Sequence record: PZ445406.1
DNA length: 47,149 bases
Source: a phage
Reading direction: 5' to 3' (one strand)
Shown here: positions 6,706 through 41,054 of the stretch, piece by piece
Position numbering within the stretch: the stretch's first letter is position 1
Layout of the letters: each line of letters begins with the position of its first letter
The notes under the pieces: model-generated
What the model was told of the DNA's origin: nothing
The model's database searches: none
The model's input: the letters and a program-made list of their open reading frames with translations, nothing else
Translations under genes and position numbers: made by a program

Positions 6706-6954
6706 ATGAATAACGTTAAAAACATCATCAAACTTACTGCGGTTCTTGTTGCTTTTTATGCAGTGGTTCAGATTGTTAACCCAACTAGCGAGGCTGATGC
6801 CAGCAGCAAGGTAAATAAATATACTGTTGAATTTGCTAAGGCTGAGAGAGCATGTCAGGAGCTTGTAGGAGGAAAAGTTGACCAAATCATGAAATATGGC
6901 AAAGAGGTTTGTAAGGACTCGGCTGCTAAGATTGCAAAAGAAAACACTAAGTAA
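6706..6954 (+). CDS. small secreted protein (signal peptide, moron-like)
   Basis: N-terminal hydrophobic signal with ADA/SS cleavage-like site; own phage-type promoter after a terminator. Confidence 0.5.
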   Translation: MNNVKNIIKLTAVLVAFYAVVQIVNPTSEADASSKVNKYTVEFAKAERACQELVGGKVDQIMKYGKEVCKDSAAKIAKENTK

Positions 6955-34417: not shown

Positions 34418-36001
34418 TCACCCCAGCAATCTCGGATTAATATAAACTTTATCACCAATCAGGCACGTATAGTTTTTCTCATCAAGCATTGGCAGTAAGT
34501 GATCTTTAATCTTCGTCATCACCCCAGCCTGAGCCTCGAACGGCTTAACCTTGCGCGCTGCCTCATACAATGAACGAACACCAACAACTCCCTTACCGTT
34601 TTTGCCTTGCTTGATCAGGATATCAATAAGCTTATTCATCTCGGCATTGTCTCCAGCGTGACCCGCAGCGTTGGCAGATGATAGATACGTCTTGCTCAGC
34701 TCCTGGAACATAATTACTGCCTCTTGCATGGTGTCTAGCTCAATCTCTCTTGACTTCTGTGGACTTCCACCGTTAGGGTTGAACCAGTTACGCACAGTGT
34801 GAAGAACCGCTGCAATCCTGATGGCCTGTTTATCGAACTTCCCCAACGCGCCGCGCAACATTGTGTGGGAATACTTACCGCCGTCAGCAAGGTGAGGTTC
34901 CATTTCCTGACGAGCGCGGTTTAGGTATTTCATTGCTGAATTACTCACTGTCAACTTTACTTCTTGCTCGTTCATTATTTCGTGAACCAATCGGAAGTAG
35001 TCAGCCTTCAACCCGCCATCAATTGGTTCATAAGTCGATTCGCCATTTTCATCAACGAATACACGCTCACCCAGGAATGACTTTTCACGAACCAAAAGGA
35101 AACGTTCAGATACACCGATACCGCGCGCACCAGCATTCATGATTGCGTTAATTGTTTCGTCTTGCGCAATTACAGAGATGCAGCCCATAGCAACGAAGCT
35201 CATGTTGTTCTCTGCGTTCGCACGGGCGATAGATACGTTACCAGCATCCCATGCTTTAAGCACAAGCTCGCTGTTCGTTTTCTTTGAGCCATCGCCATAC
35301 GTCATGCCAAGAAGTGAATTCACGCTCGTTGCTTCATCCGAGATTACTGCGAAGTTTCCCTGGCGGTTGTTTATTCGGGCCAAGCCTTCAGGCGTAGTGT
35401 CTGATACGGGGAAAACGATATCGCAAAGTTTCTCGAGCTTCTCCTCTAAATCTTCTTTTTCCTCAAATAGTGAAGCCATCTCTGACGGAGATTTTTCCTG
35501 CTTCATCTCTTTGGATAATGCAGATAGTTTGGCCATGATCTTTTTACGCTCACGCTTTCGCACTTCATTCAGTCGCTCAGTCTCGGCAATCATTGGAGCA
35601 ATTGAAAGTGAGTTAATAGCTGATTTACCAGTAGATGGTGGCTGGCTTGTTACGACGTAAAGCGACGTGGGCTGCTGAGTTCCGTGATACTCTACAGTGA
35701 ATCGACCAAGCATAGCAGCGGAAATACACCCCAGGAAGTGCATGTAAGCTGAAGATTCAGGGAACTGAACCGAACGAGCAATGTTGGCTGACAGTTTACC
35801 AACAACATCAATATCATTTCCTAGTGAGATTACAGGATACTTGTCATTGGCAGCGTCAATCTCTACTGGCGCCTTCCAGAATGATTGGGACTGTCGATAG
35901 CCATTAGCATTGATGGCGACACGCAAAGGCGGGAGGTTGTCTGCGGCAGCGATTGCCATAACCTGTTCAACAGATAGTTTATCTTCGTTGAAATCAAACA
36001 T
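34418..36001 (-). CDS. P-loop ATPase (possible replication helicase-like protein)
   Basis: Walker A-like PPSTGKS and Walker B-like VISDEA; coiled-coil insert; termini shared with 39187-39714 protein. Confidence 0.5.
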   Translation of the reverse strand: MFDFNEDKLSVEQVMAIAAADNLPPLRVAINANGYRQSQSFWKAPVEIDAANDKYPVISLGNDIDVVGKLSANIARSVQFPESSAYMHFLGCISAAMLGRFTVEYHGTQQPTSLYVVTSQPPSTGKSAINSLSIAPMIAETERLNEVRKRERKKIMAKLSALSKEMKQEKSPSEMASLFEEKEDLEEKLEKLCDIVFPVSDTTPEGLARINNRQGNFAVISDEATSVNSLLGMTYGDGSKKTNSELVLKAWDAGNVSIARANAENNMSFVAMGCISVIAQDETINAIMNAGARGIGVSERFLLVREKSFLGERVFVDENGESTYEPIDGGLKADYFRLVHEIMNEQEVKLTVSNSAMKYLNRARQEMEPHLADGGKYSHTMLRGALGKFDKQAIRIAAVLHTVRNWFNPNGGSPQKSREIELDTMQEAVIMFQELSKTYLSSANAAGHAGDNAEMNKLIDILIKQGKNGKGVVGVRSLYEAARKVKPFEAQAGVMTKIKDHLLPMLDEKNYTCLIGDKVYINPRLLG

Positions 36002-37931: not shown

Positions 37932-37964
37932 TTATTTCTCCTTTCCTCTCGTTTCTAGGACTGA

Positions 37965-38009
37965 ATCATAGCAACCAACCACTGATAGGTCATTAGCAAA
38001 AAGTGCTAT
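37965..38009 (-). promoter_or_regulatory. phage-type promoter module (leftward from region B)
   Basis: Minus strand ATAGCAC-tttt-TGCTAA, 22-bp spacer, TATGAT. Confidence 0.5.
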
Positions 38010-38569
38010 TCGTTAGATTTATGGATTGTTGCAGATATTGAAATTATTATCATGATTATTGCACATATAGCAATATTGCTTCAGATGCAATGATGTTTTT
38101 GATTGTTGCGGATTGAGCAATGAAGTGGTGGGGGAGTGAATGAAAGATGGATGGACTAACATACAAGTTGATTTTGACTCCCGATAACCTATCCTGTGGT
38201 ATACACGTAACCGCCGTATACTCAGTGTCGTCACAAAAGTTAGTGGACACTAACCTACGTTTTTTACGCCAATATACACTCGATATACAATATAATATCT
38301 ATATATATCAACCTTTTACTTTATTATTATTATTATTATTATATATATGTATACCGTGTATACCGGTCATGGATGGAATAGTTGATATGTTCCGCGCAGA
38401 TATTCTGACACTTGTCAGAAAGGGATGACATTGTAGGAATAAAAAGGCACATATATAGGAAATATCCTCAAAAATCTGTACACAGTGGATACGGCAGGTT
38501 TACAACCAGTGCCGGAGCGGGCTTGAGAGGCAAAATGCGTATCCATGATAAAATATACTAAAATATACA

Positions 38570-38598
38570 TTGACCGACACGTAAATAGGTGGCAATAT
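38570..38598 (+). promoter_or_regulatory. sigma70-like promoter (rightward from region B)
   Basis: TTGACC, 17-18 bp spacer, CAATAT/AATATA; leader CACTGAAACGAAG follows. Confidence 0.4.
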
Positions 38599-38638
38599 AG
38601 CAATCACTGAAACGAAGTAAACCAAACGAGGTATTAAC

Positions 38639-39187
38639 ATGCAGAAAGTAACACTAGGTGAAGTTATCCGCGAGATGGTTCGTAACGCGATGGCGTCTGA
38701 TGGTGGTGAATTCAAAGTTCCGGTTAGCCAGATATTCAAGCTGGTTCGCGGGAAAGAATACCCTGAGATGCGGTATGATGAGGATACCAGTGAGATCCTA
38801 AACCTTGCAGATAGGGCGATGCCGGAACTAAAGAACTCATACATTTATAATACGGTTTCGAGAATGACCGAGCTTCGAGATGCAAACAAGCGAGCGCGCT
38901 ATAAGTTCATCTGGATTGATGAGGATGGCGAGCAGGTAAGCCCTGGTAGCTTCGATGGTGATGGCGCCGATAAATACCTGGTAATATACATTGAGGACGG
39001 CGCGCACTGGACTGGAAGTCGCGAGAAGAAAAAGCAGGAATCGGAGAGGGAGGCAGCAACCATTGAAAGGTTTAAATCTCGATTGCTCAAGCTGTCACCT
39101 AGCGTCGCTGGGCTGGAAGGTGATGAACTTAAGGGTGCTGTTGCAATGATTAATGCTTATCAGGAAATGATTAAGGAAACCAAATAA
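38639..39187 (+). CDS. hypothetical protein (first rightward early gene)
   Basis: sigma70-like promoter and conserved leader upstream. Confidence 0.5.
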   Translation: MQKVTLGEVIREMVRNAMASDGGEFKVPVSQIFKLVRGKEYPEMRYDEDTSEILNLADRAMPELKNSYIYNTVSRMTELRDANKRARYKFIWIDEDGEQVSPGSFDGDGADKYLVIYIEDGAHWTGSREKKKQESEREAATIERFKSRLLKLSPSVAGLEGDELKGAVAMINAYQEMIKETK

Positions 39188-39714
39188 TGTTTGATTTCAA
39201 CGAAGAAAAGCTGACAGATGAGCAGGTCATGAGTATTGCGAAGCAGGATGGGATTCCCCCGCTACGGGTTGCAATCAATGCAAACGGGTATCGTCATGTT
39301 CAACACCTCTGGAGTCATCCTGATGCGTCATCAATCCACAAGGGTGAGGCTGTTGAGGTTCTGCTGACAGCGATAAGGACTGAATCTATAGCTCGCAGGG
39401 GAGTTGTTGGCTTACAGAAGTCTTATGACCTAATTAGGAAGCTAAAGAGGTTTAAAGGTGACAATGACGGGCTAATGGAGAGGATTAAGGACGAAATGAT
39501 TCCAGAGCTAGAGAAAGCGAATCTCGTTTGCCTCATTGGAGATAAGATTTATGTCCACCCGGCTATCATTGAGGAGTCCTGGCAACCCAACTTCAAAACT
39601 TACGAAGGTGATCACACTAGTAGACTACCATACCACTTGCGGTACAGTGAGGCGGAGGTGGAAGAGGCTATTGAGTTCTACCGGAAGACTAAATCACTCC
39701 TGAATGGCGAATAG
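39187..39714 (+). CDS. hypothetical protein sharing N- and C-termini with the 34418-36001 ATPase
   Basis: First ~40 aa and last ~30 aa align with the 527-aa protein; central domain absent. Confidence 0.5.
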   Translation: MFDFNEEKLTDEQVMSIAKQDGIPPLRVAINANGYRHVQHLWSHPDASSIHKGEAVEVLLTAIRTESIARRGVVGLQKSYDLIRKLKRFKGDNDGLMERIKDEMIPELEKANLVCLIGDKIYVHPAIIEESWQPNFKTYEGDHTSRLPYHLRYSEAEVEEAIEFYRKTKSLLNGE

Positions 39715-39784: not shown

Positions 39785-39994
39785 ATGGAAGCTGTAATTA
39801 TCGAAGATTTCGCAGGTGACAGCACGGAGGTGTCGACTTCAGTATATTACGACGGCATCGTGAGCATTGACATTGACCTGGATAACTTAGGCGATAGATA
39901 CACGCTCGCCCACTATACACCAGAGGCGGCCCGCAAATTGGCGGCGGCATTAATCCTGGCGGCGGACGAGGCGGACGAGGTGGAGAAAAAATGA
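39785..39994 (+). CDS. hypothetical acidic protein
   Basis: ATG 39785 downstream of phage-type promoter; track start 39731 lies upstream of the -10. Confidence 0.4.
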   Translation: MEAVIIEDFAGDSTEVSTSVYYDGIVSIDIDLDNLGDRYTLAHYTPEAARKLAAALILAADEADEVEKK

Positions 39995-40254
39995 AACGTT
40001 TAATGACATGCATGACCATTATTGCGGCAATTATTGCTCTTACTGGTTGCGAGAAAGCACCGGAGGTTCAGATTCAGTCAGGTGAATTCAATGTGGAGCG
40101 TCTATTCACAGTGGATGGATGTACCGCCTACCGATTCCGAGATAGCGGTAAAGCCGTCTACTACACAAATTGCCATGGCAGTACGCAGAGTGAGTACAAG
40201 TCCGGCAAGGTCACGAAACAAGAAATAGTTCAGACAAATCGCACGAATTGGTAA
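39991..40254 (+). CDS. small lipoprotein (early-expressed; candidate exclusion or envelope effector)
   Basis: Signal peptide with lipobox LTGC; ATGA overlap with upstream gene. Confidence 0.5.
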   Translation: MKRLMTCMTIIAAIIALTGCEKAPEVQIQSGEFNVERLFTVDGCTAYRFRDSGKAVYYTNCHGSTQSEYKSGKVTKQEIVQTNRTNW

Positions 40255-40436: not shown

Positions 40437-41054
40437 ATGGCTAAAATAATCATTCTTAATGGACCTGCTTCTATTGGTAAGGACACTATCGGTAACGCGC
40501 TTGTGAAAGATTACAATTGCATCCCGACAAGCTTTAAGCTTCCTATTTTTGAGATCGCAGCTTCAGTCCTTGGCACTCGGGCGTTCAGTAAGTTCATCAC
40601 GGCTTATAATGACCGAGATCAGAAAGAGATGCCTCATGATTTTCTCGGTGGGAAAACGTGTCGAGAGTTCATGATCTGGATTAGCGAGTCGGTGGTCAAG
40701 CCGCTATTTGGCAATCAGCACTTCGGTAAGCTGACGAGCGAGCGTATCCAGCTTTGTGACGAGGGATTTAGCTTTGTTTGCACTGATGGCGGTTTTCCTG
40801 ATGAGGTTATACGCCTGGTGGAAGATGGTCACTATGTTACCGTTGTGCGCCTGTTCATGGATGGCAAGACCTTCGCGGGAGATAGCCGTGATTATATCCG
40901 CATCAAGGAATCGCACTTCCCTGATTATAGGCAATATAACGAGCATGATGTACATCTGGTGAATGGTGATATTGACGGCGGCGTCATGGCAGTGGTTCGC
41001 GCCTGCGGTATCCGTCCTGCAATCGACGAGTGGGCCGACGATATTCCCTGGTAA
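40437..41054 (+). CDS. P-loop nucleotide kinase (dNMP kinase-like)
   Basis: Walker A GPASIGKDT resembling T4 gp1 P-loop; ~155-nt leader after phage-type promoter. Confidence 0.5.
   Translation: MAKIIILNGPASIGKDTIGNALVKDYNCIPTSFKLPIFEIAASVLGTRAFSKFITAYNDRDQKEMPHDFLGGKTCREFMIWISESVVKPLFGNQHFGKLTSERIQLCDEGFSFVCTDGGFPDEVIRLVEDGHYVTVVRLFMDGKTFAGDSRDYIRIKESHFPDYRQYNEHDVHLVNGDIDGGVMAVVRACGIRPAIDEWADDIPW

Follow-up and report, generated by a model that had tools for sequence, protein, structure and literature searches.

A motor-less paralogue of the MCM-like helicase encoded in a divergent operon of Escherichia phage JeanPiccard

The stretch of DNA analysed here (the window; 47,149 nucleotides, sequence record PZ445406.1) is the complete genome of Escherichia phage JeanPiccard (BASEL Bas02, MZ501080.1), a T1-like coliphage of the Drexlerviridae (Braunvirinae), in rotated form. 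Window positions are converted into those of MZ501080.1 by adding 2592. The gene under study, an ATG-initiated open reading frame of 175 codons, coincides exactly with the CDS bas02_0063, whose 175-aa product is annotated as “hypothetical protein” and will be called the short form. It matches phrog_7327 over its full length (E 2.1e-66, residues 1-175 to profile positions 1-179 of 179), but that family carries no annotation: it is listed with unknown function, and only a cross-hit reveals its tie to the helicase family phrog_2373. Searches of Pfam, NCBIfam and PADLOC gave no family for bas02_0063. The features discussed below are collected in Table 1.

Table 1. Features of the short-form locus and of its helicase paralogue, in window coordinates
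Feature	Position	Strand	Evidence
Short form, motor-less helicase paralogue (bas02_0063, 175 aa, phrog_7327)	39187..39714	+	ORF, PHROG, BLASTP
Short-form N-terminal module, aa 1-45, three short helices, motif PLRVAINANGYR..W	39187..39321	+	matches helicase aa 1-45
Short-form winged-helix domain, aa 55-128, paralogous to helicase aa 450-526	39349..39570	+	
Short-form C-terminal tail, aa 129-175, family-specific, no helicase counterpart	39571..39711	+	invariant columns, model
22-nt block CTAGTAGACTACCATACCACTT within the short-form tail	39617..39638	+	every synonymous site unchanged in 8 genomes
Large paralogue, DUF3987 / MCM-like AAA+ helicase (bas02_0053, 527 aa)	34418..36001	-	
Helicase N-terminal module, aa 1-45, common to the short form	35867..36001	-	BLASTP, model
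Helicase AAA+ core, aa 81-430, missing from the short form	34712..35761	-	Pfam, alignment
Helicase C-terminal winged helix, aa 450-527, common to the short form	34421..34654	-	BLASTP, model, hhalign
DUF7174 protein, first cistron (bas02_0062, 182 aa)	38639..39187	+	Pfam, PHROG
Sigma-70-type promoter-like element, -35 TTGACC, 17-nt spacer, -10 CAATAT	38571..38599	+	conserved in relatives

An AT-rich intergenic region of 700 bp (37932-38638) separates two divergent operons, one leftward and one rightward. The helicase is the ninth gene of the former and the short form the second gene of the latter, so that the coordinates agree with the original prediction, which had placed the two paralogues in different, oppositely oriented operons. 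It had also described the short form as the second gene after a promoter, and this description holds: the DUF7174 gene (bas02_0062; Pfam DUF7174, E 8e-48; phrog_4841) comes first and is preceded by a promoter-like element with a -35 hexamer TTGACC (38571-38576) and a -10 hexamer CAATAT (38594-38599). Fifteen related loci, although their surrounding sequence differs, have conserved a -35/-10 pair spaced by 16-17 nt ahead of the DUF7174 gene, and in the phage of locus L023 the homology starts at 38570, one base ahead of the -35 hexamer. A generic promoter scan missed the element, the -10 box of which is weak. The ATG of the short form starts on the last base of the TAA that ends the DUF7174 gene (joint sequence TAATG), and since this overlap is retained in Rtp and Rogue1, translational coupling of the short form to the DUF7174 gene is likely. 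Early expression of the rightward operon is plausible from its layout and position. The literature searched contained no mention of DUF7174.

The intergenic region contains a (TTA)n microsatellite (about 38323-38345), a palindrome (38055-38094) and several short inverted repeats, while a search for iterons or operators found short repeats in two copies and no prominent repeat family. The sequence records of Rtp, Rogue1 and T1 begin in the equivalent region, a few hundred bases ahead of the operon, and in T1 this region is the terminal repeat. Downstream of the short form, bas02_0065 (39991-40254, plus strand) starts with MKRLMTCMTIIAAIIALTGC and carries a lipoprotein signal peptide with a lipobox; its product is 85% identical to Rtp rtp3 and is possibly a superinfection-exclusion lipoprotein. 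Another gene of this strand, bas02_0067 (40437-41054), annotated as “putative P-loop NTPase”, matches the PHROG of deoxynucleoside monophosphate kinases (E 2e-41) and has a T1 homologue with 46% identity.

When the short-form product was compared with the whole window by tblastn, the two significant non-self matches both fell inside the 527-aa reading frame that encodes the helicase (34418-36001, minus strand). In BLASTP, residues 1-45 of the short form align without gaps with residues 1-45 of the helicase (69% identity, E 4e-20), and residues 51-128 with helicase residues 448-526 (36% identity, E 2e-15). The PHROG cross-hits are reciprocal, from the short form to the helicase family phrog_2373 (E 2.7e-19) and from the helicase to the short-form family phrog_7327 (E 2.3e-54), and a profile-profile comparison of the C-terminal domain (hhalign, 53 short forms against 52 helicases) gives a probability of 99.5% with E 1.5e-22. 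What had been predicted was a short terminal-domain paralogue of the ATPase. BLASTP, PHROG and hhalign all bear out the paralogy; the single terminal domain does not stand, since both termini match. Going by these alignments, the short form is a helicase from which approximately residues 50-445, that is the whole ATPase core, have been removed and which carries a 47-residue tail. This tail (residues 129-175) has no tblastn counterpart anywhere in the window. Two other ATPases of the window, a 664-aa helicase and a 205-aa dNMP-kinase-like P-loop protein, were rejected as the paralogue because neither gave a match.

At their 5' ends the genes of the short form and of the helicase are about 77% identical as DNA, and the differences are mainly synonymous. 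This argues that the similarity has been kept by protein-level selection, and recent gene conversion between the two ends was rejected on the same grounds. Antisense pairing of the two mRNAs was also rejected, since both similar sequences are sense strands. The first ~20 nt, ATGTTTGATTTCAACGAAGA, are identical in the short form (39187-39206) and the helicase (35982-36001, minus strand), and the first ~17 nt of the short form remain in L023 (around 6770-6790, minus strand) though an unrelated gene (MFDLDE...) replaces the rest. Such conservation of the translation start region could reflect a constraint on the region itself or mark a recombination junction.

The large paralogue, bas02_0053, is annotated as “putative helicase”. 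Its residues 81-430 match Pfam DUF3987 (E 2.7e-41), with a Walker A motif QPPSxGKS (aa 119-126) and a Walker B motif DE (aa 221-222) at positions that are invariant or conserved when 52 sequences are aligned, and its predicted model is MCM-like with N-terminal helices at residues 10-40, the same as in the short form. DUF3987 proteins are classified as superfamily-6, MCM-related phage replicative helicases, typically primase-coupled and with a winged helix at the C-terminus (PMC4889955). One of them, AgaPH, is a 5'-3' helicase which binds its own primase and has a small C-terminal domain (PMC11724360). Their layout consists of an N-terminal partner-binding module, an AAA+ core and a small C-terminal winged helix (PMC11724360, PMC4889955). 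The term “ATPase” used in the earlier description of the locus is correct, and the protein is more precisely the phage's MCM-like (DUF3987, AAA+ superfamily 6) helicase. In comparison with AgaPH, PriCT-DUF3987 proteins and phage SF6 helicases, the parent gene is a clear member of the group whereas the short form is devoid of the DUF3987 core; and unlike in PriCT-DUF3987 proteins, the N-terminal module is not PriCT but a 45-residue motif specific to T1-like phages.

Neither a Walker A (GxxxxGK[ST]) nor a Walker B (DE) motif is found in the short form, as both fall in the missing segment, and it has no Pfam DUF3987 match. A C-terminal winged helix homologous to that of the DUF3987 helicases is present, with the same predicted topology in both models. 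Judged by its sequence, the short form stands functionally outside the DUF3987 helicase family, the defining ATPase core being absent; without this core, ATP binding or hydrolysis and DNA unwinding would be ruled out in principle.

The structural model of the short form (pLDDT 81, pTM 0.70; built on 53 homologues) predicts an N-terminal module of three helices (11-21, 25-33 and 36-41; pLDDT ~90), a winged helix (helix 55-69, strand 73-75, helices 76-85 and 93-110, hairpin 114-123) and a tail made up of a loop and a terminal helix (155-172). The confidence of the N-terminal module is high (pLDDT ~90) in the models of both the short form and the helicase. The best match in a viral structure library (BFVD) is a 140-aa protein of phage DTL (TM 0.91 on target), a tail-less homologue with an independently built model in which the N-terminal module and the winged helix are arranged alike. 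The high confidence of the module in both models and the superposition of the DTL model suggest one compact unit in which the N-terminal module is packed against the winged helix. Many of the residues common to the short and long forms are polar (RVAINANGYR, KGVVG.RS.YE.ARKVKPF, CLIGDKIY.NP), and these would fit retained binding surfaces. In the tail, W132, F136, K137 and RLPYHLRY form invariant columns among 53 homologues, and other tail types occur in the short forms of relatives. A sequence search of solved structures returned no match for the short form, the helicase or the DUF7174 protein.

Among 50,697 phage records at least 739 match the short-form query, mostly at the helicase ends; a full-length short form is found in 113 and the DUF7174 gene in 136 phage records. 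A metagenome collection holds 326 homologous proteins, and an HMM scan of 1.84 billion representative proteins gave 50 matches, about ten of them full-length short-form clusters (164-185 aa) and the rest fragments or helicases. The helicase is present at every short-form locus with enough sequence. T1 has the helicase (57% identity) and is devoid of both the short form and the DUF7174 gene; Rtp possesses a helicase 97% identical to that of JeanPiccard, together with a short-form stub, and Rogue1 also has a helicase match. The notion that the short and long forms always co-occur across phages is refuted by T1 and Rtp, and since they do not, the short form cannot be an obligatory helicase partner. 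Two findings had been named beforehand as jointly speaking against the original prediction, and T1 and Rtp provide the comparative one by keeping the long form without a full short form; the other concerned the phenotype of a deletion.

When the shared modules were aligned, the short forms showed 41-66% identity to the helicase termini of Braunvirinae/Rogunavirinae and 26-34% to those of T1, and in a crude neighbour-joining tree all but one (P0273) cluster beside the helicases of their own lineage. Both the similarity and the tree grouping point to a duplication and core loss specific to the Braunvirinae/Rogunavirinae lineage, followed by acceleration. The exception, P0273 (167 aa), is very divergent, comprises an N-terminal module, a winged helix and a tail helix ...KKALKLYRYVKNLK, and is placed by the tree with more distant helicases; it represents an old family member or else a second independent core loss. 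A eukaryote-like protein of the representative library (P0271, 633 aa) contains five tandem copies of a motif MTAEEALAAAEAEGLPLIRSAASSSGYKHV that resemble the shared N-terminal module LTDEQVMSIAKQDGIPPLRVAINANGYRHV, each followed by an AP2-like segment. We judged this resemblance uninformative.

The short form has been lost repeatedly. Rtp rtp2 (L003 1064-1123) is a 19-residue stub, MFDFTEEKLTDEQVMRIVE, which leads directly into the next conserved gene, while Rogue1 gp04 (L004 1103-1189; 28 aa) joins in frame 14 residues from each end of a short form of the phiEB49 type. P0259 and P0250 are deletion derivatives similar to the latter, and in the stub of IMM-001 (L029 1125-1226) only the last ~33 codons are left. 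The L023 phage has a DUF7174 gene 97% identical to that of JeanPiccard; its homology ends 17 nt past the ATG of the short form and is followed by an unrelated 67-codon ORF. Among metagenomic proteins there are many more in-frame deletion derivatives and frameshifted stubs. Moreover, four out of 14 related genomes (L006, L008, L009 and L013) carry in-frame stops or a frameshift in a sequence that is otherwise well preserved. The TGA of L006 (10421-10423) and the TAG of L008 (9091-9093) correspond to codons 141/142 (window 39607-39612); the sites in L009 and L013 are codons 37 and 34, respectively. The L006 and L008 stops are independent and lie just upstream of the block CTAGTAGACTACCATACCACTT, the tail beyond them being perfectly conserved in frame, and these alleles could represent tail-less isoforms, read-through or very recent knock-outs. 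Given this repeated deletion, truncation and replacement, the short form is dispensable for growth, an accessory gene in a hypervariable slot.

Selection was compared by means of Nei-Gojobori estimates of dN/dS. In 13 genome pairs of comparable synonymous divergence the helicases are 91-99% identical and the short forms 34-90% identical among themselves, the relatives' short forms sharing 40-67% identity with that of JeanPiccard. For the short form, dN/dS is 0.21 in the N-terminal module, 0.24 in the winged helix and 0.31 in the tail (0.13-0.31 across the regions, 0.17-0.30 among homologues); for the helicase it is 0.037 in the N-terminal module, 0.021 in the core and 0.025 in the winged helix (0.01-0.04 overall). 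These estimates mark the short form as a real gene on which purifying selection acts, about 6-10 times more weakly than on the same domains of the helicase.

Our preferred explanation, held tentatively and at somewhat less than an even chance, is that the short form is an accessory, non-catalytic mimic of the helicase appendages which competes for their partners or modulates them. The helicase gene was copied in the Braunvirinae/Rogunavirinae lineage with loss of approximately residues 50-445; the three-helix motif at the N-terminus and the winged helix at the C-terminus survived in the copy, whose 47-residue tail was either acquired or preserved. Its layout suggests transcription from the sigma-70-type promoter by the divergent intergenic region and translation as a second cistron whose start codon overlaps the upstream stop. 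Activities common to the short form and the helicase would then be limited to the two appendages, which in MCM-type helicases are docking or allosteric elements (PMC4357721, PMC4889955, PMC11724360). Since the motor is missing and only such docking or allosteric modules are left, the short form would most likely act by occupying appendage-binding sites. These could belong to the AAA+ ring of the helicase itself or to a partner in the replisome, be it the primase of the phage or a replication factor of the host. Occupation of these sites could tune or pre-empt the recruitment or activity of the helicase. The alternative of a poison subunit that co-assembles into the hexamer was considered unlikely because the AAA+ ring contacts lie in the missing core. 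An accessory role fits the absence of the core, the fast evolution, the patchy distribution and the frequent loss, and is in line with the regulatory or anti-host rather than structural role originally proposed. Against the mimic explanation, the short form changes 6-10 times faster than the helicase termini, which are almost invariant among these phages (dN/dS ~0.03), and this is unexpected if both have to fit one conserved partner. The dispensability of the short form, with its in-frame stops, deletions and replacements in relatives, also counts against it.

The nearest functional analogies of the short form are the regulatory winged helix of MCM proteins and viral proteins of the small t type. 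Compared with the C-terminal regulatory winged helix of MCM proteins, the domain is here part of a separate polypeptide, fused to the N-terminal motif of the helicase and to an extra tail and encoded as the second gene of another operon; no free-standing MCM winged-helix paralogue was found in the searches made. SV40 small t and T7 gp4B, which accompany large T antigen and gp4A, are short viral proteins with a terminal domain of the replicative helicase. Small t is without motor function, and its unique C-terminal part serves other interactions. The likeness lies in a small protein that has an end of the replicative helicase. However, both of these pairs come from one gene each, via splicing or internal initiation, whereas here a separate, diverged and oppositely oriented paralogue possesses both ends. 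This paralogue was not described in the literature searched.

The main rival, which we regard as somewhat unlikely, attributes an anti-defence function to the short form: helicase appendages displayed early in infection would serve as a decoy that soaks up a host immune sensor or inhibitor or, conversely, the protein would be a defence trigger that is sensed in other hosts. The gene lies among small accessory genes behind the promoter by the divergent region, evolves fast relative to its parent, is patchy (full-length copies in the 113 records out of at least 739 with helicase matches) and has given way to an unrelated gene in the same slot of the L023 phage. Inactivation has occurred repeatedly and very recently, through nonsense codons in otherwise intact sequence, as expected if a sensed protein is selected against. 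Speed, patchiness and fresh knock-outs are expected of a protein facing variable host factors, and for this reason a decoy or trigger is retained as the main competitor. On the other hand, relaxed constraint alone can account for both speed and losses, the literature searched held no link from Drexlerviridae DUF3987 helicases to a defence system, and the family searches (PADLOC, NCBIfam, Pfam) found nothing, although PADLOC is a weak test here as it covers defence and not anti-defence proteins. A more specific version, in our estimate unlikely, would have the short form act as a decoy of the helicase appendages from the start of infection, either blinding an immune sensor or blocking helicase loading by a co-infecting related phage, the recent knock-outs reflecting hosts that sense the decoy.

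Two further explanations are less well supported. The short form could use the DNA-binding domain of the helicase as a transcriptional regulator of the early region or as an origin-recognition factor. Its winged helix is canonical, passing as such in a test of the fold, and among its best structural matches are the DNA-contacting winged-helix domains of ORC/Cdc6; it is the winged-helix part alone that matches, the AAA+ initiator module that precedes it in ORC/Cdc6-type proteins being absent. The winged-helix segment is mildly basic (net charge +2, pI 8.9), and the AT-rich, repeat-containing intergenic region of 700 bp lies just upstream. However, protein-binding winged-helix domains of kleisins, Snf8 (ESCRT-II) and RPA32C match equally well; the third helix, in the usual DNA-recognition position, has a net charge of -3, the wing one of 0, and the whole short form is acidic (pI 5.8). 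These charges make DNA binding less likely. Nor does the intergenic region offer a prominent operator or iteron family, given that its short repeats occur in two copies only, and the viability of relatives without the gene speaks against an essential origin-recognition factor. Altogether we find such a role quite unlikely. Equally improbable in our view is a decaying, functionless duplicate kept open mainly so that translation or transcription reaches the downstream genes: nonsense, frameshift and in-frame deletion alleles are many, the deletion derivatives (Rogue1 gp04 and, similarly, P0259 and P0250) preserve both the start region and, in frame with it, the 3' end, and the first ~17 nt persist even where the gene has been replaced, but dN/dS is well under 1 for each of the three regions, 53 homologues share invariant residues in the tail that has no paralogue, hundreds of metagenomic homologues are intact, and the family has diversified into several full-length types instead of simply eroding.

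The replication of T1-like phages is poorly understood. These phages supply an MCM-like helicase and a primase and no polymerase, so that the helicase must dock onto other factors, and a free-standing copy of its two non-catalytic ends is a natural probe for their partners. Close relatives in which the copy is intact, tail-less, reduced to a stub or absent constitute a natural experiment. Should the short form prove to be a regulator, bacterial viruses would have a counterpart to arrangements of the small t / large T type; if it is a decoy, it would represent a new logic for phage counter-defence; and if it is neither, it would be an ordinary accessory gene of a hypervariable early region.

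A last observation concerns the DNA that encodes the tail. Its dS is 0.42, compared with 0.8-1.2 in the rest of the short-form gene, and 8 genomes share the block CTAGTAGACTACCATACCACTT without a single difference, even at synonymous positions and in the rare codons AGA and CTA, while neighbouring codons vary. Besides the window (39617-39638), it is found in L005 (9148-9169), L006 (10431-10452), L007 (1573-1594), L008 (9098-9119), L009 (1317-1338), L010 (1202-1223) and L013 (10432-10453). An overlapping reading frame was rejected as the cause because the alternative frame is interrupted in relatives; the block could be a recombination joint or a nucleic-acid element.
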